Source: a bacterium (GTDB lineage: Bacteria; Verrucomicrobiota; Kiritimatiellia; RFP12; CAIWXQ01). Taken from it: a stretch of DNA of 19,717 nucleotides. Of this stretch, positions 3,370 to 19,413 are shown piece after piece. Positions within the stretch are counted from its first letter, which is position 1. Every line of letters begins with the position of its first letter. The DNA is taken from the NCBI GenBank assembly GCA_037144015.1, contig JBAWXQ010000030.1, forward strand, positions 1 to 19,717, written 5' to 3'. Under the pieces are notes generated by a model. The model had not been told where the DNA came from. It did not search any database and worked only from the letters and a program-made list of their open reading frames with translations. The position numbers and the translations under genes are program-made.

Positions 3370-3386
3370 TTGCACCTTCGTGCAAT
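3370..3386. promoter_or_regulatory. Perfect palindrome TTGCAC-cttc-GTGCAA, immediately upstream of a sigma70-like promoter
   Basis: ttgcaccttcgtgcaa read at 3370-3386, 6-bp arms with a 4-bp spacer. Its centre lies about 27 bp upstream of the centre of the -35 hexamer at 3401. Confidence 0.6.
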
Positions 3387-3400
3387 CAGGCGCGAACTTG

Positions 3401-3430
3401 TTGACATCAGCAGGCGCGGCGGATTAGAAT
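3401..3430 (+). promoter_or_regulatory. Near-consensus sigma70 promoter: -35 TTGACA (3401-3406), 18-bp spacer, -10 TAGAAT (3425-3430)
   Basis: Read directly from sequence. The -35 is a perfect match and the -10 matches TATAAT at 5 of 6 positions. It is followed by an AT-richer leader to the first gene of the gvp regulatory operon at about 3524. Confidence 0.55.
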
Positions 3431-3523
3431 TATTCGTTCAATTCAGTTGTCTGCACTGCGGACACATCACTTCTCGCGCGTTTTTCAGTTCTCGTCATGA
3501 CACGCCTGGCCCGATCGCCCTGA

Positions 3524-4201
3524 TTGTCTTTCATGAAAGCCAGCACAGACCGGAAGCGCGTGAGCAACCGAACGCTGCTCTACTTTCCCATCGTCCACAG
3601 CCAGTCGGAGATGGGAAAGCTGGGTAAAACCATCCGGAAGGTGACGCAGCAAAAGCTGGGCCGACGCGTCTGGCAGCGCAAGGTTGACCTGGTTGACCGG
3701 TTCTGGGAGCACCTGGCGGAGATTGTCTTCCAGGACCTGGCCATACCTTACGCGCGAACGCGCGTTTATCAGGACGGTCTGCCGGTCTGCGACAAGGAGA
3801 TCGAGATCGTCACGGAGATTGCAAAACTGGGAAGCCCGAATCACCGGCTGCTCCTCCAGCTCCGGGAAAAGGGCGCCACGATCATGGGCACGGAATCCGC
3901 CGAACTGCTGATCAGGGAGTACCGCCTCGCCAAGGAGATCCTCAACGCCGGGGATGCCCGGGAGGCCCTGGAGCTCGAGGCGCAGCAGAAGGCGGCCGGC
4001 GAGCAGCTGCTGGAGAAGCGGGACGCGTTCATTGCGGCACGGATCGACCAGACGCTGCTGGCGGGCGAGACCGGGCTCCTGTTCCTGGGAATGCTGCACA
4101 GCCCGGTGGCCCGGTTGCCGCCGGACATCCGTGTGCTTTATCCGCTGGAGGGGCTGCTGGAAAAAGGCGGCCCCCTGGACAGCGAGGTACGCAAGCGATG
4201 A
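3524..4201 (+). CDS. Hypothetical protein, first gene of the gvp regulatory operon (start TTG at 3524, or ATG at 3533)
   Basis: 225-aa ORF with no recognisable domain and a helical, charged C-terminal half. The stop overlaps the start of the downstream NtrC-like gene (ATGA at 4198-4201), indicating translational coupling. Confidence 0.55.
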   Translation: MSFMKASTDRKRVSNRTLLYFPIVHSQSEMGKLGKTIRKVTQQKLGRRVWQRKVDLVDRFWEHLAEIVFQDLAIPYARTRVYQDGLPVCDKEIEIVTEIAKLGSPNHRLLLQLREKGATIMGTESAELLIREYRLAKEILNAGDAREALELEAQQKAAGEQLLEKRDAFIAARIDQTLLAGETGLLFLGMLHSPVARLPPDIRVLYPLEGLLEKGGPLDSEVRKR

Positions 4202-5625
4202 AAACCGCCCCCGCCCAGCCCGCCCCCGCCCAGCCCGCCCCCGCCCAGCCCGTACGCGCCCTGATCGTGGACGATGACGATGACGTGCGGAGCATGCTGA
4301 CGCTGATCCTGGAAAAGGAGGGGCTCACGGTGATGGCCGCTGCGGACGGCCAGACCGCGCTGCGCCTGCTCCAGTCGCCCCTGTCCGTCCCGGATGTCGT
4401 GCTGCTCGATGTGCGCATGCCGGGGCTCAGCGGCCTGGATGTCCTGGCGAAGATCCGCGAGATGGGAAACCAGCTTCCTGTGGTGCTGATCACGGCGTAT
4501 GCCGACGTGCGGCAGTCTGTCCAGGCGATGAAGTGCGGCGCCTATGATTACCTTACCAAGCCGTTCGACAATCGTGAGGTCGCGCGGGTCACGCTGCAGG
4601 CCTTGTCGGAAAAGCGGGTGAGCCGGCTGAATGCGGCCGGCTGCGCGCCGCTGGAGCACCTGACTCTGTTTACGAGCATGGGGGCGTCGGACGCCGTTGC
4701 CCGGATCACGTCGGATGTGCATCGCGTGGCCACGTCCGATTTTTCCGTCCTGCTCATCGGCGAAACGGGCGCGGGCAAGGATCTGGTGGCCGAGGCGATT
4801 CACCGGGGCAGCGCCCGGCGGGAGGCGCCCTTTGTCGCGGTCGACTGCGGGGCGATCCCCGAGGCGCTGCTGGAAAGCGAGCTGTTCGGGCATGAACGGG
4901 GGTCGTTTACCGGGGCGGACCGCCAGAAGGTGGGGAAGTTTGAGGAAGCCCACGGGGGCACGCTGTTTCTTGACGAGCTAGCCAATCTGCCCTTCGGGTC
5001 CCAGGCAAAACTGCTGCGCGCGATTCAGCGAAAGTCGATTTACCGGGTTGGCGGCACCAAGTTCATCGACGTCAATTTCCGGCTGATTGCCGCCTCCAAC
5101 CGGAGCCTGCGCAAGATGGTGGCCGCCGGCACGTTTCGCGAGGATCTGTATTACCGGCTGTGCGATTTCACCATCGATATTCCCGCGCTGCGGGAGCGGA
5201 AAATGGATGTGCTCTACCTTGCAAAAGTCTTTCTGGAGCAGGTGGAGGTCGAGCTGGGCAAGAAGACGGCGGGCCTTTCGGAAACGGCCGTGGAGGCGCT
5301 GGTCGCCTACGACTGGCCCGGGAACGTCCGCGAGCTCAAGGCGGTGATCCGGCGGGCCGTGCTGGTGGCTGCGGGGCCCATCACCGAGAAGGACCTCAAC
5401 ATCAGGCGCATTGCGATGCCGGCTTCGGCCGATGCGGCGGAGGATGCCCTGGCCTGGCAGGGGGGGTCGCTCCGGGAGATTGTGCAGCGGAGCGTGGTGG
5501 ATGTGGAACGGAAAGTCCTGGCCGGCGTCCTGCGGGTCACCGGCGGAAACAAGGCCAAGGCGGCGCGGCTGCTGCAGGTGGACTACAAGACCATGCACAC
5601 CAAGGTGAAGAAGTTCGGCATCTAA
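4198..5625 (+). CDS. gvrA: Sigma54-dependent response regulator (NtrC family: REC + sigma54-activation AAA+ + Fis-type HTH), GvrA-like
   Basis: REC: [17 protein letters not shown]...[17 protein letters not shown]...[10 protein letters not shown]...[11 protein letters not shown]+: [18 protein letters not shown] (Walker A), [23 protein letters not shown] (GAFTGA motif), GTLFLDEL (Walker B). C-terminal HTH: [23 protein letters not shown]. The symbol is by analogy to the Serratia gvrA regulator and is not proven. Confidence 0.85.
4206..4250 (+). repeat. Three tandem copies of a 15-bp unit (ccgcccccgcccagc) encoding (PAPAQ)3 at the N-terminus of the NtrC-like regulator
   Basis: Copies read at 4206-4220, 4221-4235 and 4236-4250. 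The repeat is in-frame, so copy-number change would alter only the N-terminal linker length. Confidence 0.85.
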
Positions 5626-5641
5626 ACGAAAGGTGGACACC

Positions 5642-6331
5642 ATGAGCAGAAACAACCCTGATCCGGACAAGCAGGCGGGAAAGCCTGCCGCCGGAGGCGG
5701 CCTCTTTAGCAGCCTGACCGACTTTCTGGAGTCGGCGGGGAAGCTGGCCGGCGCGGCCGGGCAGCGGAAGCCGTCGCACGCGGCGGGTGCCGGAGGCGGG
5801 GCAAAAGAGTCCGGCGCCGCGGGCGGTCCGGAGGCCGGCGCGGCGCGCGTGGGCGGGATCCTGAACAACCTGGCCGACCTGGCTGCGAAGCTGAAGGAAC
5901 TCTCGGAAAAAGGAGAATCCCTGTCTGAACAGGGAGAGTTCACGTTCCCGTCCAAAAAAGGCGGCATCAAGGGCGTGTATGGCTTCTCCGTGAAAACAGG
6001 GCTGGGCGAGAAGGGCGACCAGATCAAGGTCGAGCCGTTCGGCAACATCCGCAAGGACCAGAAGACCGGCGAGGCGGCGGTGCAGGAGATCAGCGAGCCG
6101 CTGGTGGATGTCTTTCCGGACACGTCCGGCACCACCCTGGTCGCCGAGATGCCGGGCATGGGCCCGGACGATATCTGCCTTGAAGTCCAGGACGACGTGC
6201 TGACGATCGCCGCGCAAAAGGGCGAGCGGAAGTACCGGAAGGAGCTGCTGCTGGGGCACCTGCTGGCGAAGGATCGCATCGCCGTGGTGTGCAACAATGG
6301 CGTCGCGACCATTCGCTGTGAGAAGCCATGA
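5642..6331 (+). CDS. gvpH: GvpH-like small heat-shock (Hsp20/alpha-crystallin) domain protein with a Gly/Ala-rich disordered N-terminal half
   Basis: The C-terminal segment VDVFPDTSGTTLVAEMPGMGPDDICLEVQDDVLTIAAQKGERKYRKELLLGHLLAKDRIAVVCNNGVATIRCEKP matches the Hsp20 fold pattern (V-D-E...L-I...G-L-I). An ATG at 5642 has an AAAGGTGG RBS at 5629-5636; the ORF table begins at GTG 5633. The position after the NtrC regulator is the same as gvpH in Serratia. The stop overlaps the next gene's start (ATGA). Confidence 0.7.
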   Translation: MSRNNPDPDKQAGKPAAGGGLFSSLTDFLESAGKLAGAAGQRKPSHAAGAGGGAKESGAAGGPEAGAARVGGILNNLADLAAKLKELSEKGESLSEQGEFTFPSKKGGIKGVYGFSVKTGLGEKGDQIKVEPFGNIRKDQKTGEAAVQEISEPLVDVFPDTSGTTLVAEMPGMGPDDICLEVQDDVLTIAAQKGERKYRKELLLGHLLAKDRIAVVCNNGVATIRCEKP

Positions 6332-8463
6332 AAACACAACCACCCGGGGCTGCCGCGCCCATCAAGCTGCGTGTGACCGAAGCCCTGACCAAGGATGTCG
6401 GGCGGGCCTTTGCCCGGATGGGCCCCGAGGATCTGGACCGGCTGCACCTCGCCGTTGGCGACACCGTGGAGGTGGAGGGAAAGCGCAAGGCCGTCTGCAA
6501 GGCGATGCCGGCCTACGCGGACCTTCGCGGACAGTCCCGCGTCCAGCTCGACGGATCCACCCGCGAGAACGCGGGCGCGGGGCTCGATGATCCGGTGAGC
6601 ATCCGCAGGATCTCCTGCCGCCCGGCGGATCGCGTGGTGCTCGCGCCGACCAACGTCGTGCCGGCGGACCGGGACCTGAAGTACATCGGGAGCCTGCTGG
6701 ACGGCCTGCCCGTTCTGGAGGGCGCCAAGATCCAGGCGGCCCTGTTCGGCAGCCGCTCCGCTTTCTTTCAGGTTGAATCCGTGATGCCCAAGGGCGCCGT
6801 GCTGATTCATTCCGGCACGACGCTCGTGATCGGCAAGGCCCAGGCAGAGGAGGGGGCGGGGGCGCTTTCCTACGAGGACATCGGCGGCCTGAAGTCGCAG
6901 CTCCAGCGCATCCGGGAGATGATCGAGCTGCCGCTGCGCTACCCCGAGGTGTTTCAGCGCCTCGGGATTGACGCGCCCAAGGGGGTGCTGCTGTACGGCC
7001 CGCCGGGATGCGGCAAGACCCTGATCGCCCGCGCCATCGCCCACGAGACCGATGCCAGCTTCTTTTCCATCAGCGGGCCGGAAATCATCCACAAGTTCTA
7101 CGGCGAAAGCGAAGCCCACCTGCGGAAGATCTTCGAGGAGGCGACAAAAAAAGGTCCCAGCATCCTGTTCATCGACGAGATCGATGCCATTGCCCCCCGG
7201 CGGGACAATGTGGTTGGCGACGTGGAGAAGCGGGTCGTTGCCCAGCTCCTCGCCCTCATGGACGGGCTGAACAAGCGGCAGAATGTGATCGTCATCGCCG
7301 CCACCAACATCCCCAATGCCCTTGACCCGGCCCTGCGGCGCCCGGGCCGGTTCGACCGGGAGATCGTGATCCCGATACCGGACCGGCGCGGCCGTCTGGA
7401 GATCCTGGAGATTCACAGCCGGGGGATGCCGCTGGCCGGTGACGTCCAGATGGAACACCTGGCGGAGATCACCCACGGCTTTGTGGGCGCGGACCTCGAG
7501 GCGCTTTGCCGGGAGGCGGCCATGGGCTGCCTCCGGCAGATCATGGGGGAGATCGACTTTAGCCAGGCGGGGATTCCGTACGAAACGCTCGCAAAGCTCG
7601 AGGTGCGCATGGAGGACTTCCTGTCCGCCCTGCGGGAGATTGAGCCGTCCGCCATCCGGGAGGTCTTTGTCGAATCGCCCAATGTACACTGGGGCGACGT
7701 CGGGGGTCTGGCCTCCTTGAAGCAGCGCCTGATCGAGGCCGTGGAGTGGCCCTTGAAGCATCCCCGGCTCTTTGAAAAAGGCGGCGTGACGCCACCCAAG
7801 GGGATTTTGCTGGTCGGCCCGCCGGGTTGCGGCAAGACCATGATGGCCAAGGCGATCGCCACCGAGAGCCAGGTCAACTTCATCTCGGTCAAGGGCCCGG
7901 CCCTGATGTCCAAGTGGGTCGGCGAATCGGAAAAGGGGATCCGCGAGATCTTCCACAAGGCCAGGCAGGCTGCGCCGTGCATCATCTTCTTTGACGAGAT
8001 TGACGCCCTGGTGGCGACGCGCAGCGCGGGCACCACCGACTCGCATGTCTCCGAGCGGATCCTGAGCCAGTTCCTGGCGGAGTTTGACGGGATCGACGAG
8101 CTCCGGGGGGTTCTTGTCCTGGGGGCCACCAATCGCCGGGACCTGCTGGATGCCGCCGTTCTCCGCCCAGGGCGGTTCGATGATATCGTCGAGATGACGT
8201 TGCCCGGCGAAGCAGACCGCGAGGCGATCTTCGCTGTGCATTTCCGCGGCAAGCCGCTGGCGAAGCAGATCAAGTGCGCGGCGCTGGCGGCAAAGACCGA
8301 CGGGTTCAGCAGCGCGGACATCGCCGCGGTTGCGCGCAAGGCCGCCATGACTGCGGTTCGCCGGGTCGTGAAGAGCCTGGAGTGTGGCGCGGCGGAAGAG
8401 CCGGAAATCCTGATCCAGCGCGAGGACGTTGACGACGCGCTGGAGGAAGTGCGCAGGCGGTAG
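6328..8463 (+). CDS. CDC48/p97/VAT-like AAA+ ATPase (N-domain plus two AAA modules, D1 and D2)
   Basis: N-terminal region KLRVTEALTKDVGRAFARM...LAVGDTVEVEGKRKAVCKA...SRVQLDGSTRENAGAGLDDPVSIR resembles the double-psi-barrel CDC48 N-domain. D1 has Walker A GPPGCGKTLIARAIAHE, Walker B ILFIDEIDAIAP and an SRH-like region VIVIAATNIPNALDPALRRPGRFDREIVI. D2 has Walker A GPPGCGKTMMAKAIATE, Walker B IIFFDEIDALV and LVLGATNRRDLLDAAVLRPGRFD. Total length is 711 aa, and the gene is translationally coupled to gvpH (ATGA). Confidence 0.85.
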   Translation: MKTQPPGAAAPIKLRVTEALTKDVGRAFARMGPEDLDRLHLAVGDTVEVEGKRKAVCKAMPAYADLRGQSRVQLDGSTRENAGAGLDDPVSIRRISCRPADRVVLAPTNVVPADRDLKYIGSLLDGLPVLEGAKIQAALFGSRSAFFQVESVMPKGAVLIHSGTTLVIGKAQAEEGAGALSYEDIGGLKSQLQRIREMIELPLRYPEVFQRLGIDAPKGVLLYGPPGCGKTLIARAIAHETDASFFSISGPEIIHKFYGESEAHLRKIFEEATKKGPSILFIDEIDAIAPRRDNVVGDVEKRVVAQLLALMDGLNKRQNVIVIAATNIPNALDPALRRPGRFDREIVIPIPDRRGRLEILEIHSRGMPLAGDVQMEHLAEITHGFVGADLEALCREAAMGCLRQIMGEIDFSQAGIPYETLAKLEVRMEDFLSALREIEPSAIREVFVESPNVHWGDVGGLASLKQRLIEAVEWPLKHPRLFEKGGVTPPKGILLVGPPGCGKTMMAKAIATESQVNFISVKGPALMSKWVGESEKGIREIFHKARQAAPCIIFFDEIDALVATRSAGTTDSHVSERILSQFLAEFDGIDELRGVLVLGATNRRDLLDAAVLRPGRFDDIVEMTLPGEADREAIFAVHFRGKPLAKQIKCAALAAKTDGFSSADIAAVARKAAMTAVRRVVKSLECGAAEEPEILIQREDVDDALEEVRRR

Positions 8464-8464
8464 G

Positions 8465-9265
8465 ATGAACCAGGGAATCTATCTGTTCTGCCTGACGCCG
8501 GAAAACGACCGGCTGGTGCTGGCGGACGCCGGAGACGATCCGGCGCAGCCGCTTGCAGCCGCGGCCGTCGCCGGAGTCACCGCCATTGTTGCTCCGGTTT
8601 CCCTGAATGACTTCTGCGGCCCGGAGTCCCGCGCGCGGCTGGCGGACCTGGCATGGGTGGGGCCGCGGGCGCAGCGTCACGAAGAGGTCATCCTGGCCGT
8701 GATGCGCCAGGCGCCGGTGCTGCCGGTGCGGTTCGGGAGCGTGTTCTCCTCCCTGGCGGCGCTGTCGGCTTCGCTGGAACGGCAGCGTGAGGCCATGGCG
8801 CAGTTTTTCCTGGACACGGCCGGCCATCAGGAGTGGACGCTCAAGGCCTTTGTGGACCGGTCGCAGGCAAGGGCGAGGGTCATGGCCACACGGCTGGCGG
8901 CGGAGAAAGAACAGCTGGATGCGCTGGCGCCGGGGAAACGCTATCTGCAGGAGCAGAAGATCAATGGCGTCGTGGACCGGGAGGTGGCGTTCGGGCTCAA
9001 AAAGATGGCCGCCGGGATCAGCCTCTTCTTTCAGGAGGTGGCCCCTGTGTCCTGTGTCGGTCGCCTGCTGCCCCGGGACGTGACGGGGCGGGATGACGAA
9101 ATGTTTTTTCATTCCGCCCTGCTGGTGCCCGACGGCGCCGTCGCGCAGCTGCAGCGACTGGCCGCTGCGTGGAATGCCCGGCATGCGTCCATGGGGATGA
9201 TTCTGGAGGCCTCGGGCCCCTGGCCTCTCTACCATTTCACACCTGTCAGCAGCGCCGCGCCATGA
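8465..9265 (+). CDS. gvpF: Gas vesicle protein GvpF/GvpL family (paralog 1)
   Basis: Starts MNQGIYLFCL (ATG 8465). The C-terminal hallmark is SGPWPLYHF (GPWPPY[N/H]F-type motif of GvpF/L). Length is about 266 aa. The ORF table begins earlier at 8429, but that ATG overlaps the upstream stop. Confidence 0.8.
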   Translation: MNQGIYLFCLTPENDRLVLADAGDDPAQPLAAAAVAGVTAIVAPVSLNDFCGPESRARLADLAWVGPRAQRHEEVILAVMRQAPVLPVRFGSVFSSLAALSASLERQREAMAQFFLDTAGHQEWTLKAFVDRSQARARVMATRLAAEKEQLDALAPGKRYLQEQKINGVVDREVAFGLKKMAAGISLFFQEVAPVSCVGRLLPRDVTGRDDEMFFHSALLVPDGAVAQLQRLAAAWNARHASMGMILEASGPWPLYHFTPVSSAAP

Positions 9266-9269
9266 GCCT

Positions 9270-9995
9270 ATGGTCTACCTGGTCTATGGAATTTTGAAAG
9301 CTTCGGCCGCCGGCAGCGGACCGCTGGCGGGCGTGCGGGGCGCGTGCGTGACCATCGTCACCGCGCATGGCCTCGCTGCGGCCATCTCGCAGCTGGATGC
9401 GGCGGTTCATGCGCCCTCCGTGGACGAGCTGCTTGTCTATGGCCGGGTGGTGGATGCGCTTTTCCGCCGGCAGGCGGTGGTCCCGTTGCGATATGGCTGT
9501 TTTTTGAACGGGCCGGCGGCGGTCGAGGCGGTTCTGGAAGCGAAAAAAGATTCTTGCGAAGCCCTGCTGGCGGAGCTGGACGGGCAGGCGGAGATGGGGA
9601 TCCGGATTCTGCTGCCCGCAGGTGCAGAGACGGTGCCGCCCGCGGCGCAGCCGGTGGATGGCAGCGCGTATCTTGCCCGGCGGAAGGCGCACTACCAGAT
9701 GCAGGAGGCCGACGCCCGGCAGCATCAGGCGCTGCTGGACCGGTACGTGCAGGCCCTGGCCGGACTGAATGGAAAGCACCGGACCGAGACAGCCACGCGC
9801 GACGGCGCGGTCGCCCTGTCGCTCGATTATTTGATTCCGAAGAGCCAGGTCAGCGCGTTTCGGGAGATCTTTCGCGGGGTGGCGGCGCAGGAAGGCACCC
9901 GGGTTCAGCTCAGCGGCCCGTGGCCGCCGTACAATTTTTCCATGCCGTCCGACCTGACGGCGCCAAGGGGCCGGTCGGATAGGAGGTTGCCGTGA
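9270..9995 (+). CDS. gvpL: Gas vesicle protein GvpF/GvpL family (paralog 2)
   Basis: Starts MVYLVYGIL and ends ...QLSGPWPPYNFSMPSDL. This is the canonical GvpF/L architecture, at 241 aa. It is tandem to the previous GvpF/L, as with gvpF2-gvpF3 of Serratia. Confidence 0.8.
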   Translation: MVYLVYGILKASAAGSGPLAGVRGACVTIVTAHGLAAAISQLDAAVHAPSVDELLVYGRVVDALFRRQAVVPLRYGCFLNGPAAVEAVLEAKKDSCEALLAELDGQAEMGIRILLPAGAETVPPAAQPVDGSAYLARRKAHYQMQEADARQHQALLDRYVQALAGLNGKHRTETATRDGAVALSLDYLIPKSQVSAFREIFRGVAAQEGTRVQLSGPWPPYNFSMPSDLTAPRGRSDRRLP

Positions 9996-11572: not shown

Positions 11573-11579
11573 TCTCCCG

Positions 11580-11645: not shown

Positions 11646-11718
11646 GTATACCCACTTACCGCATGCATGGGTATGTGTGCGGATTCGAGTTACAGAATCA
11701 ACGCAATGGAGACGAGCA

Positions 11719-11937: not shown

Positions 11938-11959
11938 GTGTGAGATGCTTCGTGTCTTC

Positions 11960-11990
11960 CCGGTGGCGGGGGTCGACGATCCCCGCCACC
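11960..11990 (+). terminator. GC-rich hairpin (CGGTGGCGGGG-gtcgacgat-CCCCGCCACCG) immediately downstream of gvpA. Candidate attenuator or partial terminator
   Basis: Two 11-bp perfect inverted arms, cggtggcgggg (11960-11970) and ccccgccaccg (11980-11990), with a 9-nt loop, lie 23 bp after the gvpA stop. No U-tract follows, so read-through is likely. Confidence 0.5.
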
Positions 11991-12051
11991 GCGGTTGACC
12001 CGGAGGCTTTTCAATGCACGACAGTCGGTAGTTGCCACGAAGGGAATCATC

Positions 12052-12666
12052 ATGAAGAAGCTGGCCGAAGCAGAGAAGAAGCATTGCGCGAAACGGGTGG
12101 CCTTTCAGACCAATCTGACCGTTGAAGTGAAGTCCATGCTGACGGAATTTTCCAAGACGCGGCGCGAGCTGGCCCGCATCGCAAGTGAGGAACGCAGGGC
12201 GCTGCTGCTGGAGATCCGGAAGCAGGTCGCGGGTTTGCGCACCCTGACGAGCCAGGTGCAGGCAGGCGCACCGCGTGCCCTCGCCGTGCCGTTGGCCGTT
12301 CCGGCTCCGAAAATCAAGATTTTCGGGGCGTCGATCATCGTCCAGAAGGCGAAGACCGACAGCGGCATAGTCCCTCTGTTGCCCAGCGTCAATACGCCGA
12401 AAATGCCGGTGTTTGTGGCGCCGGTTCAGGTGAAAGTCGAACCCCCCAGGGCCGAAATGATCGCCCCCCCGGCCCTGCCGAAACCGGCACCGGTCAAGGT
12501 GGCCAAGGTGGTCGAACCGCGCATGGTTGAACCCAGGGCAAAGCCGGTCGCGCCTCCCGTGGCCAGTCGCCCACTGAAGAAGGAAGCGCATGACGGGTGG
12601 CTGGACGAAATTTTTGGCAAGAGCGCGACCAGCGCGACCAAGGCGAAGCGGAAGAAAAAGAAGTAG
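12052..12666 (+). CDS. Hypothetical coiled-coil / Pro-rich / Lys-tailed protein in the gvpC position
   Basis: The N-terminus MKKLAEAEKKH...RELARIASEERRALLLEIRKQVAGLRTL is predicted helical. The middle is Pro/Val/Lys-rich with short repeats (VEPPRAEM, VEPRMVEPRAKPVAPPVASRP). The C-terminus is KAKRKKKK. It lies immediately downstream of gvpA and the hairpin. No 33-aa GvpC repeats are visible. Confidence 0.6.
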   Translation: MKKLAEAEKKHCAKRVAFQTNLTVEVKSMLTEFSKTRRELARIASEERRALLLEIRKQVAGLRTLTSQVQAGAPRALAVPLAVPAPKIKIFGASIIVQKAKTDSGIVPLLPSVNTPKMPVFVAPVQVKVEPPRAEMIAPPALPKPAPVKVAKVVEPRMVEPRAKPVAPPVASRPLKKEAHDGWLDEIFGKSATSATKAKRKKKK

Positions 12667-12671
12667 GAAGC

Positions 12672-13046
12672 ATGACGCGGCGTAGATCAGTCAGGAGTAC
12701 GGTTGCATTCATCGAAGGGGTTTGCGCTTTTTGCCGCGGCAAAGGTGTGGACCCCTTCGCTGTCATGTCGGCGCGCTCCACGTGCTGCGTGTGCTCGGGA
12801 ACATGCAAGGTGCGGGTTCGTGCGCCGATTATTTCCTGCGCGCACTGCCGCGGCACGGGGGCTGTCAAAACCTTGACTTGTACGGTCTGTGGCGGCAAGG
12901 GCTCGGTTCACCGGCCGGCGCAGCCAACGAGGGTCTGCCCGGTTTGTCACGGCACGGGCGACGATGCCTCCGCGCCGGCCATGGACTGTTTGAAGTGCCG
13001 GGGACGCGGTTGTGTCACCGGAGTGAAGCCAACTAAGGGAGCCTGA
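12672..13046 (+). CDS. DnaJ-type zinc-finger (CxxCxGxG repeat) protein, BSD2-like stand-alone cysteine-rich domain
   Basis: Six CxxCxGxG-type motifs in 124 aa: CAFCRGKG, CCVCSGTC, CAHCRGTG, CTVCGGKG, CPVCHGTG, CLKCRGRG. AGGAAG lies 5 nt before the ATG at 12672. There is no J-domain. Confidence 0.75.
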   Translation: MTRRRSVRSTVAFIEGVCAFCRGKGVDPFAVMSARSTCCVCSGTCKVRVRAPIISCAHCRGTGAVKTLTCTVCGGKGSVHRPAQPTRVCPVCHGTGDDASAPAMDCLKCRGRGCVTGVKPTKGA

Positions 13047-13051
13047 TCGTC

Positions 13052-14029
13052 ATGAGTCGTAATTCCACCAAAGTTGAATCCCTGCCGACCGTACGCGTGC
13101 CGACGACGGCGGACGGCGTCCAGCCAGAAGCCGGCGACAGTTTCGTGTCTTCCGCTTACGTCGAGCAGGTCACCAAGCGTGCGCTGGCATACCTGATCGC
13201 CGGATACGCCGTCCATTTCTCGGGCGTGGCGGGAACGGGCAAGACGACCATGGCGTTCCATGTGGCATCCAAGCTGGGCCGGCCGGTCACGCTGGTGCAC
13301 GGGGATGACGAGTTCGGCAGCTCCGACCTGGTTGGGCGCGACGGCGGCTACAAGAAGCACAAGGTGGTCGACAACTTCATCCACTCCGTCCTGAAGACGG
13401 AAGAGGAGTCGCGGAACTTCTGGGTGGATGATCGGCTCACCACGGCATGCAAGACCGGGGAGATCTTTATTTACGACGAGTTCAACCGCTCCCGCCCGGA
13501 GGCCAACAACGCCCTGCTGAGCGTTCTTTCCGAGGGCATTCTGAACCTGCCGAAGCTCCGCCAGTCGGGGGAGGGCTACCTGACCGTGCACCCGGAGTTC
13601 CGCGCCATCTTCACCTCGAACCCCGAAGAATACGCCGGCGTCCACAAGACGCAGGATGCCCTGATGGACCGCCTGATCACCATCCACCTGGAGCACTACG
13701 ACCGGGAAACAGAGGTCATGATCGTCAAGCGGAAGTCCGGCCTGCCGCTGGAGGATGCCGAGCGGATCGTGGACATGGTGCGCGAGCTGCGCATGTTCGG
13801 GGTGAACAATCACCGCCCGACCATCCGGGCCGGCATTGCCATCGGGCGGATCCTGTTCTCCCAGAAGCGCCGCGCCCGTGCGGACGACGAGTTCTTTCTG
13901 CTGGTCTGCCGCGATGTGCTGGCCACCGACACGGCCAAGGTCACCCATGGCGGCCAGCCGCTGATGCTGGAAAAGGTGGAAGAGGTTCTTCGCCGGGTCT
14001 GCAGTCCGGGCAAGACAGGCCGGAAATAG
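13052..14029 (+). CDS. gvpN: Gas vesicle protein GvpN (AAA+ ATPase of the CbbQ/NirQ/NorQ/GvpN family)
   Basis: Walker A is FSGVAGTGKTTMAFHVA, Walker B IFIYDEFNRS. TSNPEEYAGVHKTQDALMDRL and the overall length of 325 aa match the GvpN family. Confidence 0.85.
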   Translation: MSRNSTKVESLPTVRVPTTADGVQPEAGDSFVSSAYVEQVTKRALAYLIAGYAVHFSGVAGTGKTTMAFHVASKLGRPVTLVHGDDEFGSSDLVGRDGGYKKHKVVDNFIHSVLKTEEESRNFWVDDRLTTACKTGEIFIYDEFNRSRPEANNALLSVLSEGILNLPKLRQSGEGYLTVHPEFRAIFTSNPEEYAGVHKTQDALMDRLITIHLEHYDRETEVMIVKRKSGLPLEDAERIVDMVRELRMFGVNNHRPTIRAGIAIGRILFSQKRRARADDEFFLLVCRDVLATDTAKVTHGGQPLMLEKVEEVLRRVCSPGKTGRK

Positions 14030-14040
14030 GGGAGACGGAC

Positions 14041-14367
14041 ATGCCTACGACAAAGAAAGTGCTGCGCGGGGTGCAGAACATACGGACCATGTCGGGCCGG
14101 GTGGACGACCAGGCCCTTCCGTACAAGGCGTATATGAAGATCAGCGTGCTCGAAATGGAAAAGCACCGCCGGGGCGTCGAAAAGGCCTGCGCGCTGGAGA
14201 AGGTGCGGCAGATCGACCAACGGTTTCTGGAGATCGAGGCGGAAAAGAGGAAGGCCCTGCAGTCGCTGAAGTCGCAGGGCGCGCCCCTGCCGCAAGGTCG
14301 GCGGGCGGCGGCGCATCCGGCCGCGGCGCCAATCCGGAACACGGGCTCATTTAAGATCAGGTATTAA
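14041..14367 (+). CDS. Hypothetical small protein (108 aa) immediately after gvpN, in the GvpO/GvpV position
   Basis: MPTTKKVLRGVQNIRTMSGRVDD...EKHRRGVEKACALEKVRQIDQRFLEIEAEKRKALQSLKSQG has a charged, helical character. GGAGACGG lies upstream of the ATG at 14041. It occupies the same frame-1 ORF as the ORF-table entry 13447..14367, whose upstream part overlaps gvpN in another frame. Confidence 0.5.
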   Translation: MPTTKKVLRGVQNIRTMSGRVDDQALPYKAYMKISVLEMEKHRRGVEKACALEKVRQIDQRFLEIEAEKRKALQSLKSQGAPLPQGRRAAAHPAAAPIRNTGSFKIRY

Positions 14368-14601
14368 CGGCGTGCAGGAGGTTGTAATGCTGCTCATCAG
14401 TGACTCAAGTCATATTCGTACGAACCGTCACCGCAGGGGCCCCCGGGCCTGCCGGACGCTGACGGGGTTTTTCACAGGCCGCGGCGAGGCGCAGCGCGTC
14501 TGCCATGCGCACGTGAATCTGCTGAACCGGCGGCTCCGGTTGGCCTGGCTCAGCCGCCAGTGGGTTGGGCATCAGGAAAGAATGGCATTCAGTAAGGAAC
14601 A

Positions 14602-14808
14602 ATGGACATGAAAATCAACTGTTTATCCTGTGGTCATAACATCACGCTTGAGGATGAGACGTATAACGATTACGAGGGCGCGATCAAATGCTTTGCCTGC
14701 AGCGCGATTCTGGAGGTCAAGCTGGCGGAAGGGTGCGTCAAGTCGGTGAAAATTCATGCGACACAAACCGGCCGCGCGGCCGATGGGCCGGGCAAGCACA
14801 GGGCGTAA
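14602..14808 (+). CDS. Small zinc-ribbon protein (CxxC...CxxC), with lower GC than its neighbours
   Basis: M(D)MKINCLSCGHNITLEDETYNDYEGAIKCFACSAILEVKL contains two CxxC pairs about 19 aa apart. An AAGGAA RBS precedes ATG 14602/14608. The codon usage is conspicuously AT-richer than the surrounding genes. Confidence 0.45.
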   Translation: MDMKINCLSCGHNITLEDETYNDYEGAIKCFACSAILEVKLAEGCVKSVKIHATQTGRAADGPGKHRA

Positions 14809-14829
14809 CACGCAAGGGAGAATTCGGTT

Positions 14830-15591
14830 ATGGCTGCCAAGACAACCAGCGCGGGGAAGTATCTGTATGCCGTCGTCCAGGCGTCCGGCGACCGTGACTA
14901 TGGCGAGATCGGCATTGACGGGGCGCGGGTGTATCTCATTTCGGATGAGCACGTCGCGGCGGTGGTCAGTGATTTTACCGCCGGCAAGATCCGCCCGGAG
15001 CGACGGCACATCGCGGCGCACCAGGCCGTCCTGAAGCGAGTCCTGGCAGACGAATCGCTCCTGCCGATCAGCTTCGGCATCATCGCGGAGGGGTCCAAGG
15101 AGATCCGGCGGATTCTGACGCTCAACCGGAAGCCGTTCGTGAAGCAAATCCAGCGCGTGTTCGGCAAGGTGGAGATGGGCCTGCGCGTGTCCTGGGACGT
15201 TCCCAACATCTTCGAATACTTTGTCAACACCCATGCCGAGTTGCGGGTGGCGCGCGACCAGCTGCTGGGCGGAAACGGCTCGCCGTCCCGCGAGGACCAG
15301 GTGGAGGTCGGTCGGCTGTTCGACCGGTTGCTCCAGTACGAGCGCGAAGAGCTCACGCAGAAGGTAGAGGCGTGCTTGAAAGGCTGCTGTGTTGAGATCA
15401 AGCGGAACCCTCCGCGCAACGAAAAAGATGTGATGAACCTTGCCTGCCTTGTGACACGCCAGTCCGGCGAGAAGGATTTTGAGGCGGCCATCTGCGTGGC
15501 GGCCCAGGGGTTCGACAATAACTTTTCGTTCGATTTCAACGGTCCCTGGGCGCCGCACAATTTTGTGGATGTCGAGCTGGTCCTCGAGTGA
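14830..15591 (+). CDS. gvpF: Gas vesicle protein GvpF/GvpL family (paralog 3)
   Basis: MAAKTTSAGKYLYAVVQAS...ISFGIIAEG...FNGPWAPHNFVDVELVLE has the canonical N-terminal YLYA[VI] beta-strand and the C-terminal GPWxPxNF motif. A GGGAG RBS lies upstream. Confidence 0.8.
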   Translation: MAAKTTSAGKYLYAVVQASGDRDYGEIGIDGARVYLISDEHVAAVVSDFTAGKIRPERRHIAAHQAVLKRVLADESLLPISFGIIAEGSKEIRRILTLNRKPFVKQIQRVFGKVEMGLRVSWDVPNIFEYFVNTHAELRVARDQLLGGNGSPSREDQVEVGRLFDRLLQYEREELTQKVEACLKGCCVEIKRNPPRNEKDVMNLACLVTRQSGEKDFEAAICVAAQGFDNNFSFDFNGPWAPHNFVDVELVLE

Positions 15592-15642
15592 CAGTTCCTG
15601 GACGGGCCGGAGCGGACACCCCGGCAGCTGGCGAGGTGCACG

Positions 15643-16035
15643 GTGTTCCTGGTTGATGACATCATTCTTTCGCCGATCCGCGGCCTGATCTGGGTCTTTC
15701 GCGAGATTCACAGTGCCGCCGGCAAGGATCTTGCCGCGGAACCTGCGGCCATCACCGCCCGCCTCGGCGAACTCTACATGATGCTGGAGACCGGCCAGCT
15801 GAACGAGGCCGAGTTCGACGCCCAGGAGAAAACGCTTCTGGATCGCCTGGATTTCTTGAAGTCGGCTTCCGTCGGCGACGCGGAGGATGCCGGAGACGAC
15901 AGCGAAGAGAACGAGGCTGGCGAGGAGGATGAGCCGGACGGCGACGGCGAGGCGGAGGTTGCGGACAGACCAACGGATGGCGCGATGGATCGCGTGCGCC
16001 CCGGAGAACATTCCCAAGGACGGGCAGACTCGTGA
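15643..16035 (+). CDS. gvpG: Gas vesicle protein GvpG with an extended acidic C-terminal tail
   Basis: (GTG start) MFLVDDIILSPIRGLIWVFREI...LGELYMMLETGQLNEAEFDAQEKTLLDRLDFL matches the GvpG family pattern (compare B. megaterium GvpG: LHKLVTAPINLVVKIGEKV...LMRYE). The tail DAEDAGDDSEENEAGEEDEPDGDGEAEVAD is strongly acidic. The stop overlaps the start of the downstream ArsA-like gene. Confidence 0.7.
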   Translation: MFLVDDIILSPIRGLIWVFREIHSAAGKDLAAEPAAITARLGELYMMLETGQLNEAEFDAQEKTLLDRLDFLKSASVGDAEDAGDDSEENEAGEEDEPDGDGEAEVADRPTDGAMDRVRPGEHSQGRADS

Positions 16036-18053
16036 GGGACATGCAGAAATCATCCGGGTTCCCGCCGGCCGATAACCTGCCGCTGTTGCTTTTTGGAGGA
16101 AAGGGCGGCGTCGGCAAAACGACAGCCGCCACGGCGACGGCGCTCGACCTTGCTGTTCGGAACCCGGGGCAGTCCATTCTTCTGGTTTCCACGGATCCCG
16201 CGCACTCCCTGCGAGACAGCTTTGCCGGTGACAAGCCGCCGCCGAACCTGACGGTGCTGGAGCTGGATGCCGGCGCCTGCCTGCAGGCTTTCCAGGCGGA
16301 GAACCGGCAGCGACTCCTGGAGATCGCCTCGCGGGGAACCTTTCTGGACGGCGAGGACATCGACCGGTTTCTGGCGCTATCCCTTCCGGGCATGGATGAG
16401 CTCATGGGGTTTATGGAGATCAACCGCTGGGTCCGGGATGGCACCTATGCCCGGATTGTCGTGGATACGGCGCCCACCGGGCACGCCCTGCGGCTGATGG
16501 GGATGCAGGCGCAGATGCAGAAGTGGCTGCAGGCGCTGGACGCTCTGCTGGCCAAGCACCGGTACATGAAGAAGCTTTTCCAGGGGCACTATGAGCGCGA
16601 CGACCTCGACCGCTTCATCGAGGGCCTCGCCGACTCCGTCCAGGCGACAGGCGCGCGGCTCATGGATCACCAGCAGTGCCGCTTTGTTCCGGTGATGCTG
16701 GCCGAAGCCTTGAGCGTCGAGGAGACGCTGGACCTGATCCGGGAGCTGCGCCGGCTGGGCATCGGGACGGATCATGTGGTGGTCAATCGCCTGTATCCGG
16801 AAAGCGGCTGCGATCTGTGCCGGGCCGTGCGCGGCCAGCAGCTGCAGGAACTTGCGCGGCTGGCGGATGCGGCGCTTTTTTCCGGCAAGCAGCTTTGGGG
16901 CGTCCCCATGTATCCGCTGGAAATCAAGGGGCTGGAGGGCCTGCGCGCCTTCTGGAAGGGGCTCGCGCCGATCCCGACGTCCTGCGCGGAACGTCCGTGC
17001 GCCCGGCCACGAATCGCTCCGCGCGTCGACAACCCCGCTCCGCTGCCGCCGCCGGACACGACGCTGCTGGTCTTTGCCGGCAAGGGTGGGGTTGGCAAGA
17101 CCACCCTGGCCTGTGCCACGGCCCTGCGCCTGGCCCATGAGCACCCCGGGAAGCGAGCCCTGCTTTTCTCCGCCGATCCCGCCCACTCGCTGGCCGACTG
17201 TCTGGGGCTGCCCGTGGGCCCCGTCCCGGAGCAGGTGGTGCCGGGCCTGTGGGCCATGGAAATGGACGCCCCCGCCGGGTTTGCTGCGTTGAAAGAGCAG
17301 TACCGCAAGGAGCTGGAGCAGTTTCTCGCGCGTCTGATGCCGAACCTCGACCTGACGTTCGATCGTGAAGTGATGGAGCGGATCATGGATCTGTCGCCCC
17401 CGGGGATTGATGAGCTGATGGCCCTTGCGGCGGTGATGAACCATCTGTCTCCGGAGGGGTACGACATCCTGATCCTTGACGCGGCTCCGACCGGGCACTT
17501 GATCCGGCTGCTGGAGTTGCCGGAGATCATTGAGAACTGGCTGAAGGTGGTGTTCAGCATTTTCCTCAAGTACCGGAACATCTTCCGCCTGCCGGGAATC
17601 TCGGCGCGCCTGATCGGCCTGTCCAAGGACCTGAAGCGCCTGCGGGCAGTTCTGCGCGATCCGTCCCGCGCGGGCCTCTACAGCGTCAGCATCCTCACGG
17701 AAATGTCCTTTGCGGAGACGGGGGACCTCCTGGCTGCCTGTGAGCGTCTGGCCATTCCGGTTTCCGGCTTGTTTTTGAACCTGGCAACGCCGGATTCCGC
17801 CGACGCCCTCTGCGCATCGATTTTCGCCCGTGAGTCGCAAACCCGGGCGCGCATCGCGGCGGCGTTTCCCGGCACGCCGCAGACGCTTGTGTATCGGCAA
17901 AGCGAACCGCGGGGCACGGCAAACCTGGCGGCGCTGGGAATGCAACTCTACCTGCCGCCTGGCGACGGAGCCGGGCAGGCGCGAACGGCCGTCGGCAGCA
18001 GACGCCGGACGGAGCGAAGCCGGTCGCCAACCGGTGAGGTTTTGTATGCCTGA
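16032..18053 (+). CDS. Fused tandem ArsA/GET3-family ATPase (two deviant-Walker-A P-loop NTPase halves)
   Basis: Half 1: LLLFGGKGGVGKTTAATATA, DPAHSL, and the A-loop/switch II VVDTAPTGHALRL. Half 2: LLVFAGKGGVGKTTLACATA, DPAHSL, ILDAAPTGHLIRLL. A CDLC (CxxC) lies in the first half (PESGCDLCRAV). The protein is 673 aa. Start is GTG 16032 or ATG 16041, and the stop overlaps the ATG of the next gvpA-like gene (18046). Confidence 0.85.
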   Translation: MRDMQKSSGFPPADNLPLLLFGGKGGVGKTTAATATALDLAVRNPGQSILLVSTDPAHSLRDSFAGDKPPPNLTVLELDAGACLQAFQAENRQRLLEIASRGTFLDGEDIDRFLALSLPGMDELMGFMEINRWVRDGTYARIVVDTAPTGHALRLMGMQAQMQKWLQALDALLAKHRYMKKLFQGHYERDDLDRFIEGLADSVQATGARLMDHQQCRFVPVMLAEALSVEETLDLIRELRRLGIGTDHVVVNRLYPESGCDLCRAVRGQQLQELARLADAALFSGKQLWGVPMYPLEIKGLEGLRAFWKGLAPIPTSCAERPCARPRIAPRVDNPAPLPPPDTTLLVFAGKGGVGKTTLACATALRLAHEHPGKRALLFSADPAHSLADCLGLPVGPVPEQVVPGLWAMEMDAPAGFAALKEQYRKELEQFLARLMPNLDLTFDREVMERIMDLSPPGIDELMALAAVMNHLSPEGYDILILDAAPTGHLIRLLELPEIIENWLKVVFSIFLKYRNIFRLPGISARLIGLSKDLKRLRAVLRDPSRAGLYSVSILTEMSFAETGDLLAACERLAIPVSGLFLNLATPDSADALCASIFARESQTRARIAAAFPGTPQTLVYRQSEPRGTANLAALGMQLYLPPGDGAGQARTAVGSRRRTERSRSPTGEVLYA

Positions 18054-18237
18054 CACAGATTTGCTGGAAACAGAGCATGTGAGCCTGTGCGAGGTTCTGG
18101 ACCGGGTTCTCAACAAGGGCGCCGTGGTGATCGGCGAGGTTATGATTTCCGTCGCCGATGTCGATCTGATCTACCTGAGCTTGCAAGTGGTCATATCCTC
18201 GGTGGAAACGGCGCGAAAGTCGCAGGAAATGCCATGA
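18046..18237 (+). CDS. gvpS: Small GvpA/GvpJ/GvpS-family gas vesicle protein (63 aa)
   Basis: MPDTDLLETEHVSLCEVLDRVLNKGAVVIGEVMISVADVDLIYLSLQVVISSVETARK carries the GvpA-family core (LxxVLDRxLxKGxVxxGxxxISxxxVxL...SVETA). A GGTGAGG RBS is present. The gene is translationally coupled on both sides. Confidence 0.8.
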   Translation: MPDTDLLETEHVSLCEVLDRVLNKGAVVIGEVMISVADVDLIYLSLQVVISSVETARKSQEMP

Positions 18238-18611
18238 AGCACGAGCAAACCTGCATGGATGCAGCGCCTGTCGCCGGGCCGGCGCCGGATGTCGCGGCCA
18301 TCAGCGACTTTTCCCGCGCCATGGCCTCCGGCGCAGCTTCGCGTCAGCCCCGGCGGCTGAACCTCGATGCGGAAAAGACCCGGAACGGCCTGGCGCAACT
18401 CGTGTTGACCGTGGTCAAGCTGCTGCACGAGCTTCTGGAGAAGCAGGCGCTGCGGCGAATGGAGGCCGGAGACCTTACGGATGCCGAAATTGAGCGTCTC
18501 GGGCAGACCTTGATGCGGCAGTCCGAGGAGCTCGCCCGCATCTCGCGCGAGTTCGGCCTGACGGCGGATGATTTGAATCTGGATCTGGGACCCTTGGGAA
18601 AACTTTTATAA
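18234..18611 (+). CDS. gvpK: Gas vesicle protein GvpK
   Basis: NGLAQLVLTVVKLLHELLEKQALRRMEAGDLTDAEIERLGQTLMRQSEELARISREFGLTADDLNLDLGPLGKLL matches GvpK closely (compare B. megaterium ...GLAQLVMTVIELLRQIVERHAMRRVEGGTLTDEQIENLG...DLNIDLGPLGSLL). The ATG at 18234 overlaps the upstream stop (ATGA). Confidence 0.9.
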   Translation: MKHEQTCMDAAPVAGPAPDVAAISDFSRAMASGAASRQPRRLNLDAEKTRNGLAQLVLTVVKLLHELLEKQALRRMEAGDLTDAEIERLGQTLMRQSEELARISREFGLTADDLNLDLGPLGKLL

Positions 18612-18624
18612 CAGGAGGTGTCAT

Positions 18625-18936
18625 ATGGCAGTCACACGCAGAGTTGCAACGTCCGTTGGCGGTACAAACCTGGCGGATCTTCTGGAGCGGATTCTCGACA
18701 AGGGCATCGTGATCGCCGGCGATATCCGGATCAACCTCGTGGATGTCGAGCTGCTGACGATTCAGATCCGCCTGGTGATCTGCTCGGTGGATAAGGCAAA
18801 AGAAATGGGCATGGACTGGTGGGTAAACAACCCCGCCTTGTGTTCGCGGGGCAAAGAGCAGGTGGCGCCCGGGGCAATCGAAGAGCTCGAAGGTCGTCTG
18901 GCGCGGCTTGAGACGTCGCTGGCTGCGCAGCGATGA
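18625..18936 (+). CDS. gvpJ: Gas vesicle protein GvpJ (GvpA-family minor structural protein)
   Basis: [51 protein letters not shown] is the canonical GvpJ core plus a C-terminal extension. An AGGAGGTG RBS lies at 18613-18620. Confidence 0.85.
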   Translation: MAVTRRVATSVGGTNLADLLERILDKGIVIAGDIRINLVDVELLTIQIRLVICSVDKAKEMGMDWWVNNPALCSRGKEQVAPGAIEELEGRLARLETSLAAQR

Positions 18937-18966
18937 AAAGACCGCCCACGCCGGCCGCCAGCCGCA

Positions 18967-19413
18967 TCACCCCGCGGCCGGCAGGCGGCTTCGCACCACG
19001 TTCAGCAGGATTTCGCTGGTGACGGGCTTCTGGATGAGGCAGTGATTCTGCCCTGCGGACGCCAGCGCCTTGATGCTGGGGGACGGCGCAAAGCCCGTGC
19101 AAAAGATGACGGCAGGCATTTCCCACCCTTTTACCGCGCAGGCTTCGCGGATCCTGGCAAAGGCCGTCTGGCCATCCATGATCGGCATCTTCAGGTCCAT
19201 CAGCAGAACGCCATGATGCGACTTCTGGAACGCTTGCAACGCTTCCAGCCCGTTGGCCGCCACTTCAATGGTGCACGTAGGAAAACCGGAGGCCAGGATC
19301 ATCCGGAAAATGTCACGCACAGGCGTCTCATCATCGGTGATGAGGATTCGCCGTGCGTCACACGGAATCAGTTCTGCTGCGGGTTGGCTCGTCATGTTCG
19401 TCGGGTATCCCAT
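18967..19413 (-). CDS. gvrC: Single-domain response regulator (CheY-like receiver only), GvrC-like, convergent with the gvp structural operon
   Basis: RILITDDETPVRDIFRMIL...HGVLLMDLKMPIMDGQTAFARIRE...MPAVIFCTGF...IQKP has the REC-domain acidic pocket, a phospho-acceptor Asp in LMDLKMP and a conserved Lys. No output domain is present. The symbol is by analogy to Serratia gvrC. Confidence 0.7.
   Translation of the reverse strand: MGYPTNMTSQPAAELIPCDARRILITDDETPVRDIFRMILASGFPTCTIEVAANGLEALQAFQKSHHGVLLMDLKMPIMDGQTAFARIREACAVKGWEMPAVIFCTGFAPSPSIKALASAGQNHCLIQKPVTSEILLNVVRSRLPAAG

Follow-up and report, generated by a model that had tools for sequence, protein, structure and literature searches.

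Does contig JBAWXQ010000030.1 from a member of the Kiritimatiellia carry a complete set of genes for gas vesicles, and what do the genes for ATPases and chaperone-like proteins that are interspersed with its gas-vesicle (gvp) genes have to do with these organelles? The questions arise from a sequence-only reading of this stretch of 19,717 nucleotides (called the window below), which proposed a Serratia-type gas-vesicle island with an embedded regulatory module and with unusual accessory genes. With high confidence, the sequence of the window can be read as holding a complete island for gas-vesicle biogenesis, which is of the Serratia/Desulfomonile type and arranged as two co-directional operons. 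The island is well conserved and belongs to a widespread family of bacterial gas-vesicle clusters with a layout that has already been published.

Twenty closely spaced genes on the plus strand, between positions 3533 and 18936, make up the island. The dominant coding frame of each gene was resolved by third-position GC, and families were assigned with Pfam and NCBIfam models at their curated cutoffs. All the components listed by the sequence-only reading are present with such matches, namely gvpA, a GvpS-like paralog, gvpJ, gvpK, gvpG, gvpN, three GvpF/L paralogs, an Hsp20-like protein (the match being marginal in this case), a sigma54 activator, a PAS kinase and a receiver. GvpA and its two family paralogs, GvpK, GvpG and the three GvpF/L proteins match the Gvp models, and GvpN matches AAA_5. 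The GvpA sequence is 85-100% identical to the GvpA proteins of related loci. GvpN, with the Walker A motif GVAGTGKT and the Walker B motif IFIYDEF, is 77-91% identical to GvpN from related clusters and, by tblastn, 55-63% identical to proteins annotated in RefSeq as "gas vesicle protein GvpN". In all 20 genes, which do not include a gvrC remnant described below, the reading frames are intact, with a third-position GC content (GC3) of 0.62-0.86, and motif inspection found the catalytic motifs complete in every ATPase and regulator. The window as a whole has a GC content of 64%, so that the genome is high in GC rather than very high, as had been stated.

Genes within the operons are separated by -8 to +21 nt, the exceptions being 114 nt 3' of gvpA and 51 nt 3' of gvpF1, while 146 nt lie between the kinase gene and gvpA. 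This spacing fits two operons, the first with the order unk222-gvrA-Hsp20-CDC48-F-F-HK, where HK is the histidine kinase (3533-11572), and the second with the order gvpA-(C-position)-ZnF-N-V108-s74-Zn ribbon-F-G-ArsA-S-K-J, where ZnF is a zinc finger (11719-18936). Start and stop codons of accessory genes overlap with those of gvp genes. Scans of the window with Rfam and for tRNAs gave no matches.

For Serratia, the order gvpA1CNVF1GWA2KXA3Y and gvrA-gvpH-Z-F2-F3-gvrB-gvrC has been tabulated (Pfeifer 2022, PMC9501494, Table 1), exactly as it had been given in the sequence-only reading. The published order of both operons is found in the window without deviation for any gene, except that the operons have changed places and the gvrA operon comes first. 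As such an operon-inverted layout has been described for Desulfomonile tiedjei and Psychromonas ingrahamii (Tashiro 2016, PMC4982088), the layout of the window is already known. Within each operon, the window and Serratia have the same gene families in the same order. Both have three GvpA-family paralogs, three GvpF/L paralogs, a GvpH that resembles Hsp20 and an NtrC-type GvrA, with a sigma54 promoter ahead of gvpA and one of the sigma70 type ahead of the regulatory operon. Unlike Serratia, the window is empty between gvpK and gvpJ (the gvpX slot) and 3' of gvpJ (the gvpY slot), its gvrC is deleted, and it adds unk222, a zinc finger, s74 and a zinc ribbon. Desulfomonile, Psychromonas and about 80 loci from metagenome-assembled genomes (MAGs) share with the window the order unk222-gvrA-hsp20-CDC48-F2-F3-HK-(gvrC)-gvpA-(C)-(ZnF)-gvpN-V-(small)-F1-G-(ArsA)-S-K-J. 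The CDC48 proteins of the Desulfomonile-type and MAG loci are 64-87% and their GvpN proteins 62-91% identical to those of the window, and the sigma54 promoter is found at the same distance from gvpA. The Desulfomonile-type loci differ in having no ArsA, while the window has no gvrC.

The Serratia gene gvpA1 has an experimentally defined sigma54 promoter that depends on GvrA, and the promoter of gvrA is of the sigma70 class (Tashiro 2016, PMC4982088). The window likewise encodes an NtrC-type activator within the cluster and has a predicted sigma54 promoter upstream of gvpA. A search with the strict sigma54 consensus, allowing up to two mismatches, missed this site, which was located by a weighted score and by comparison with relatives. 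Its -12 box is degenerate, with CCGC instead of the usual TTGC. A score of 12/15 or more is reached by the best -24/-12 match upstream of gvpA in 56 of 65 related loci, mostly at -66 to -130, compared to 1 of 65 for a coding control. Operon 1 probably starts from the sigma70-like promoter and operon 2 from the sigma54 promoter. By analogy with Serratia, GvrB would sense a signal via its PAS domains and pass phosphate to a receiver; phosphorylated GvrA would then open the sigma54 promoter, after which the structural operon would be expressed and the vesicle built.

A 14-nt direct repeat (CCATAGCCTCCCGG / CCATAGTCTCCCGG) is found at 11553-11581, some 80 nt upstream of the predicted sigma54 site. 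Relatives show an enrichment of single CCATAG motifs in the region upstream of gvpA, but only 3 of 65 have the exact pair, which there overlaps the gvrC stop codon. This CCATAG repeat is a candidate GvrA binding site.

Table 1. Features of the gas-vesicle island and its neighbourhood, with positions in the window. Scores are those of the named family models; fractions refer to related loci.
Feature	Position	Strand	Evidence
Sigma70-like promoter TTGACA-18-TAGAAT	3401-3430	+	11/12; ~100 nt upstream of unk222; consensus match only
unk222, conserved 222-aa protein, first gene of regulatory operon	3533-4201	+	homolog precedes gvrA in 20/20 loci
gvrA-like NtrC-type sigma54 enhancer-binding protein	4198-5625	+	REC + Sigma54_activat (222 bits) + HTH_8; Response_reg 106 bits
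Hsp20/alpha-crystallin-like protein, gvpH position	5642-6331	+	Pfam HSP20 21.3 bits vs cutoff 20.8, partial domain, residues 166-227
CDC48/VAT-type double-ring AAA+ ATPase, gvpZ position	6328-8463	+	TIGR01243, 884.4 bits vs cutoff 802.65
GvpF/L paralog, gvpF2 position	8465-9265	+	PF06386, 135 bits
GvpF/L paralog, gvpF3 position	9270-9995	+	PF06386, 148 bits
gvrB-like PAS-PAS-HisKA-HATPase histidine kinase	9992-11572	+	PAS_4/HisKA/HATPase_c; follows gvpF3
gvrC receiver remnant	11468-11572	+	internal deletion of ~400 bp, junction after 11531 (DNA alignment)
Predicted sigma54 (-24/-12) promoter TGGCACGATTCCCGCG	11631-11646	+	88 nt upstream of gvpA ATG; score 12/15
gvpA, major shell protein, 72 aa	11719-11937	+	PF00741, 62.8 bits
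gvpC-position protein, 204 aa	12052-12666	+	conserved ~65-aa N-terminal helical domain, Pro/Ala/Val-rich linker, basic tail (alignment)
Stand-alone DnaJ-type zinc-finger protein, 124 aa	12672-13046	+	DnaJ_CXXCXGXG 35.9 bits vs cutoff 32.7, ORF trimmed to ATG
gvpN AAA+ ATPase	13052-14029	+	AAA_5, 64 bits
V108, gvpV position, 108 aa	14041-14367	+	adjoins gvpN in 82/83 loci
s74, conserved basic protein, 74 aa	14387-14611	+	detected in 25/74 loci, conserved residues
zr66, zinc-ribbon protein, 66 aa (MKINCLSCGH...C..C)	14608-14808	+	60/74 loci; conserved Cys pairs; weak Zn_ribbon Pfam matches
GvpF/L paralog, gvpF1 position	14830-15591	+	PF06386, 197 bits
gvpG	15643-16035	+	PF05120, 57.7 bits
Two-domain Get3/TRC40/ArsA-family ATPase, gvpW position	16032-18053	+	PF02374, 361 bits
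GvpS/M/A2-like small GvpA paralog, 63 aa	18046-18237	+	PF00741, 59.6 bits
gvpK, 125 aa	18234-18611	+	PF05121, 112.7 bits
GvpJ/A3-like GvpA paralog, 103 aa	18625-18936	+	PF00741, 63.6 bits
Stand-alone receiver REC148, convergent with gvp operon	18967-19413	-	Response_reg, 59 bits
Sigma70-like promoter of REC148	19486-19457	-	consensus match

How typical the accessory genes are was assessed in a survey of related loci. Homolog look-ups, together with a one-genome-per-species scan with a GvpN alignment from which the best 80 of 531 relatives were used, yielded 83 non-redundant loci (single loci are given below by their L numbers). These span at least ten phyla, with members among the Thermodesulfobacteriota, Acidobacteriota, Planctomycetota, Verrucomicrobiota, Spirochaetota, Victivallales, Methylomirabilota/Rokubacteria, Gemmatimonadota, Calditrichota, Sumerlaeota and others. 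The Serratia locus is not among the best 80 of the 531 GvpN genome matches. Presence was counted only over loci that cover the position of the respective gene. On this basis, the CDC48-type gene is present in 53 of 54 loci, gvrA in 33 of 35, the ArsA-type gene in 45 of 64 and the zinc finger in 48 of 76. The sequence-only reading had thus correctly recognised CDC48-like, ArsA/GET3-like and DnaJ zinc-finger domains, which are borne out by the family models, but these genes are not unusual, and RefSeq annotations and, for ArsA, a publication from 2010 precede their description here. The accessory ATPase and chaperone genes are standard parts of this cluster family. When the ArsA-type protein, V108 and the CDC48 protein from Methylosinus were each used as a query, only delta-proteobacterial/unclassified or alpha-proteobacterial relatives were returned.

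Such annotated cases include plasmid pMSC49b of Methylosinus sp. C49 (NZ_AP022334.1), a cultured alpha-proteobacterium. Its cluster resembles that of the window in having a sigma54 regulator, a PAS kinase, a response regulator, gvpA, gvpN, a V-like gene, GvpF, GvpG, GvpJ and GvpH, a homolog of unk222 and a protein annotated in RefSeq as "CDC48 family AAA ATPase" with 52% identity to that of the window. It differs in that the Hsp20-unk222-CDC48 module is at the 3' end of the cluster, and in having neither ArsA nor the zinc finger. In the gvp cluster on plasmid p4 of Nostoc sphaeroides, RefSeq annotates a two-domain protein as "ArsA family ATPase" and the next one as "AAA family ATPase", the latter being a double-AAA ATPase with 49% identity to the D1-D2 part of the CDC48-type protein from the window. 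The cyanobacterial clusters differ in having no gvrABC, an AAA ATPase without the CDC48 N domain, a GvpC with 33-residue repeats, and another gene order.

It might be argued that the genes for the CDC48-type, ArsA-type and zinc-finger proteins have nothing to do with gas vesicles and are passengers which serve general proteostasis or arsenic resistance. Both ArsA and the zinc finger are absent from about a third of the related loci, and deletions of gvpZ, gvpW and gvpH in Serratia still permit vesicle formation in the native host. However, each of the three genes keeps the same operon position across at least ten phyla, they overlap with gvp genes at their start and stop codons, and both types of ATPase are also linked to gvp genes in Nostoc. 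In Escherichia coli, deletion of gvpH, gvpW or gvpZ reduced or abolished the signal (Hurt 2023). With respect to arsenic, the ArsA-type protein fails the equivalog model for arsenical pumps (TIGR04291, 171 bits versus a cutoff of 650), and the window contains no ars genes (arsB, acr3, arsR, arsD). The same conclusion was reached from co-evolution, as two-domain ArsA homologues were found to co-evolve with gvp genes in four phyla (Castillo & Saier 2010, PMC2963123). We therefore consider it highly improbable that the three genes are passengers.

The CDC48-type protein has a CDC48_N domain followed by two AAA domains (Pfam), and its top match in the PDB is VAT from Thermoplasma (5g4f, E = 5e-208). 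The Walker motifs A and B are present in both rings, as are the aromatic pore loops KFYGESE and KWVGESE. In domain architecture, Walker motifs and pore loops the protein thus matches archaeal VAT, a relative of eukaryotic Cdc48-p97. It differs from these in that its C-terminus has, upon motif inspection, no HbYX-type motif for docking to the proteasome. In the literature searched, we found no discussion of a CDC48-type ATPase in bacterial gvp clusters. The gene directly upstream codes for the Hsp20-like protein, which scores E = 5e-29 with the NCBIfam model for archaeal Hsp20 (100.9 bits, under the cutoff of 140). This arrangement holds wherever both genes were detected, with the exceptions of L038, where the order is reversed, and of Methylosinus, where unk222 lies between them.

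The CDC48-type gene sits exactly in the gvpZ slot and the ArsA-type gene in the gvpW slot, and the sequence-only reading had assumed that recognisable ATPases here replace unnamed Serratia proteins. Such a non-homologous replacement of GvpZ and GvpW would make the island mechanistically distinct from that of Serratia. It is suggested by the Serratia literature, in which GvpV-Z are called "of unknown function" and no ATPase domains are named. In addition, only GvpV and GvpZ, but not GvpW, are listed as conserved in other proteobacterial clusters (Tashiro 2016, PMC4982088), so that the W slot may plausibly be filled by a non-homologous protein. For the Z slot the evidence points the other way. 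GvpZ is described as shared by clusters from beta-, gamma- and delta-proteobacteria (Tashiro 2016, PMC4982088), and in the Desulfomonile-type loci of our survey the CDC48 gene is the sole gene in this slot, so that GvpZ itself is more likely to be a CDC48-type protein. The exact Serratia order gvrA-H-[CDC48]-F2-F3-gvrB-gvrC, with CDC48 in the gvpZ slot and the receiver directly 3' of the kinase, is repeated in L003, L005, L006 and L007. Overall, we regard a non-homologous replacement as rather improbable.

The ArsA-type ATPase passes the GET3/TRC40/ArsA model TIGR00345 (366 bits versus a cutoff of 135). Its nearest structures are ARSA1 (5zme) and an archaeal Get3-type protein (3zq6), both with scores above that of E. 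coli ArsA. The deviant Walker A motif GKGGVGKT and the switch II motif DTAPTGH are intact in both halves, and CDLC aligns with the CxxC motif (CEFC) of 3zq6, so that deviant Walker A, switch II and CxxC motifs all match Get3/TRC40/ARSA1. What sets both this protein and the VAT-like unfoldase apart from their counterparts is that they are encoded inside a bacterial organelle-assembly operon.

The zinc-finger protein has six conserved CxxC pairs; only the DnaJ_CXXCXGXG module is matched, and an N-terminal J domain with its HPD motif is absent. Substitutions per codon position (0.32/0.28/0.62) carry the signature of coding DNA. The corresponding open reading frame (ORF) of 114-124 codons has not been called as a gene in 4 of 4 records (the window; L003, 8640-9008; L006, 6705-7097; L007, 6709-7095), which leaves an apparently intergenic gap of about 380 bp 5' of gvpN, and none of seven start variants of the ORF is found in the protein collection. 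The idea that gene callers miss this ORF systematically is only partly right: 146 representative clusters exist at E <= 1e-10, for which JGI uses the name "DnaJ-class molecular chaperone". A co-occurrence of zinc finger and ArsA, which the first five loci had suggested, was not upheld with 60 loci (Fisher p = 0.24). In L003 (14961-15884), just 3' of gvpJ, a GvpL/GvpF domain is fused to a DnaJ J domain, which hints that some clusters may recruit Hsp70.

All these parts occur together in the window. Gene content, gene order, intact catalytic motifs and promoters are read directly from the DNA, while the roles of the accessory ATPases are a matter of inference. Hsp20 and the VAT-like unfoldase might work as a holdase/unfoldase pair, and the Get3-like ATPase and the zinc finger might act as chaperones for the very hydrophobic GvpA-family proteins. 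We tentatively propose, as a possibility and not as the expected outcome, that the Hsp20/unk222/VAT-type module and the variable set of Get3-like, zinc-finger and zinc-ribbon proteins together form a dedicated proteostasis system for the hydrophobic, aggregation-prone GvpA-family proteins. Such a system would hold and deliver shell monomers during assembly, or it would extract and recycle monomers from collapsed vesicles.

Four conserved cluster genes had been overlooked by the sequence-only reading: unk222, V108, s74 and the zinc ribbon. For unk222, the count given in Table 1 covers the 20 loci with enough upstream sequence. The homolog in Methylosinus, which is encoded between gvpH and CDC48, shares 39% identity. 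Outside the window, unk222 is located for instance at 11080-11658 of L089. Conserved His, Asp, Glu and Arg residues occur along with the motifs IPIIHTxxDMG, YQDGLP, GSRNH, MGTES, RRDxFIAxRI and GILFLGMLH. A sub-threshold match to TraB_PrgY_gumN in 9 of 15 members (best E = 0.0067) makes it possible that unk222 is a remote TraB/PrgY/GumN-like protein with a hydrolase fold. A single-sequence AlphaFold2 (AF2) model was unusable (pLDDT 41), and a profile search against PDB sequences gave no match.

V108 is predicted to form one long helix (AF2 with 17 sequences; helix 23-78, with pLDDT >90 at residues 31-70). A word-indexed search had returned 18 matches, as if V108 were lineage-restricted, but this is ruled out by tblastn, which places it beside gvpN in nearly all loci (Table 1). 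The s74 gene is almost confined to ArsA-type loci (19 of 20 s74-positive loci, Fisher p = 0.003), an association which is confounded by relatedness and weak detectability. The gvpC-position protein has no Pfam or NCBIfam match and no cyanobacterial 33-residue repeats. The GvpS/M-like gene, which is called as a gene in L001, overlaps the ArsA stop codon by 8 nt.

The regulatory genes are the part of the island that departs from its relatives. The GvrA-like protein has the phospho-Asp motif DVRMP at 71 and a GSFTGA loop at 235. A perfect 15-nt tandem repeat of 3.2 copies, situated at the 5' end of its gene (4205-4252), is in frame and encodes (PAQPA)n before the receiver domain. The PAS histidine kinase corresponding to GvrB follows gvpF3, and has its H-box HEIRNPL at 281 as well as G1 and G2 boxes. 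It is 526 aa long, compared to 503-505 aa in relatives. Over its last ~35 codons the kinase ORF runs through what is left of gvrC, thereby gaining an unrelated tail of ~25 residues. Of gvrC, ~35 nt from its start and ~30 nt from its end remain on either side of a gap of ~400 bp, so that a single-domain GvrC receiver directly after gvrB is lacking and only the remnant is present. In all of the 37 relatives with a kinase between gvpF3 and gvpA, gvrC is intact beside the kinase, and the window is the sole locus without it among the 38 with a kinase at that site. The deletion of gvrC is the one real oddity of the island.

The receiver REC148, which is encoded at the far end of the island, is not the GvrC ortholog. 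It is only 22-28% identical to the gvrC family, the members of which share 59-71% identity with each other and 44% with the Methylosinus protein; the true gvrC is the deletion remnant. Of the embedded NtrC/kinase/receiver module that had been proposed, the activator and the kinase could be confirmed, but the receiver is neither adjacent to the kinase nor GvrC.

As gvrC is essential in Serratia, where gvrA, gvrB and gvrC are each required (Tashiro 2016, PMC4982088), regulation in the window is either rewired, perhaps through the neighbouring REC148, or impaired. In the latter case the island might be a decaying or regulatorily crippled copy, with a structural operon that is no longer inducible, so that the organism makes no vesicles from it. 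The deletion of a gene that is kept in all 37 comparable relatives would fit such a copy, as would the -12 box, since with its weak sequence the expression of the gvpA operon may be impaired. On the other hand, the other 20 genes show no further sign of decay in their frames, motifs or GC3, and a receiver gene with its own predicted promoter adjoins the island. Moreover, 19 related loci, mostly from Acidobacteria, have neither kinase nor gvrC at this position, which indicates that the regulatory wiring is flexible. We consider a crippled copy unlikely, though less so than a replacement of GvpZ and GvpW, and prefer to regard the island as complete. In six loci from Acidobacteriota (L036, L040, L054, L064, L068 and L072), the kinase gene is not placed between gvpF3 and gvpA but lies upstream of unk222, on the opposite strand; three of these loci (L054, L068 and L072) also have a gvrC-like gene at another site. 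Within this cluster family, it is the regulatory module that is mobile.

Several points weigh against a complete and functional island of this type. The source is a metagenome assembly from an uncultured bacterium, and the window matches the NCBI metagenome contig SESH01017690.1 (GCA_005795945.1). One gene that is essential in Serratia is deleted, and the -12 box of the sigma54 promoter is weaker than in most relatives. V108, the CDC48-type protein and the ArsA-type protein are equated with GvpV, GvpZ and GvpW by gene position only. Finally, gvpH, gvpZ and gvpW are dispensable in native Serratia, and chaperone roles for the CDC48, ArsA and zinc-finger proteins are ones that we infer.

To the left of the island, the window contains a gene for a NYN-domain/OST-HTH (LOTUS) protein (274-1167, minus strand), a gene for a 362-aa protein without Pfam match (1357-2445), and a gene for a membrane-anchored receiver protein (2459-3256) which is not conserved beside related islands. 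A 7-nt tandem repeat (CTTCTGC, ~6 copies) is found at 193-241 in the intergenic region just downstream of the NYN/LOTUS gene.

The locus itself adds little, as reference genomes contain more than 500 GvpN-encoding relatives and as the same architecture is available from Methylosinus, Desulfobacterium vacuolatum and Serratia, which are in culture or the clusters of which have already been cloned. The clusters from Serratia and from the related delta-proteobacterium D. vacuolatum have given ultrasound contrast in E. coli (Hurt 2023). The comparative result outweighs the window: nearly invariant in the family are a VAT/CDC48-type unfoldase, an Hsp20 and a 222-aa protein that had not been remarked on before, while a Get3-like ATPase and a DnaJ-type zinc finger are frequent optional members. 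These accessory genes may bear on the mechanism of gas vesicle assembly, which is relevant to the engineering of acoustic reporter genes. As a natural variant, the gvrC deletion could reveal whether the third regulator is dispensable outside Serratia.

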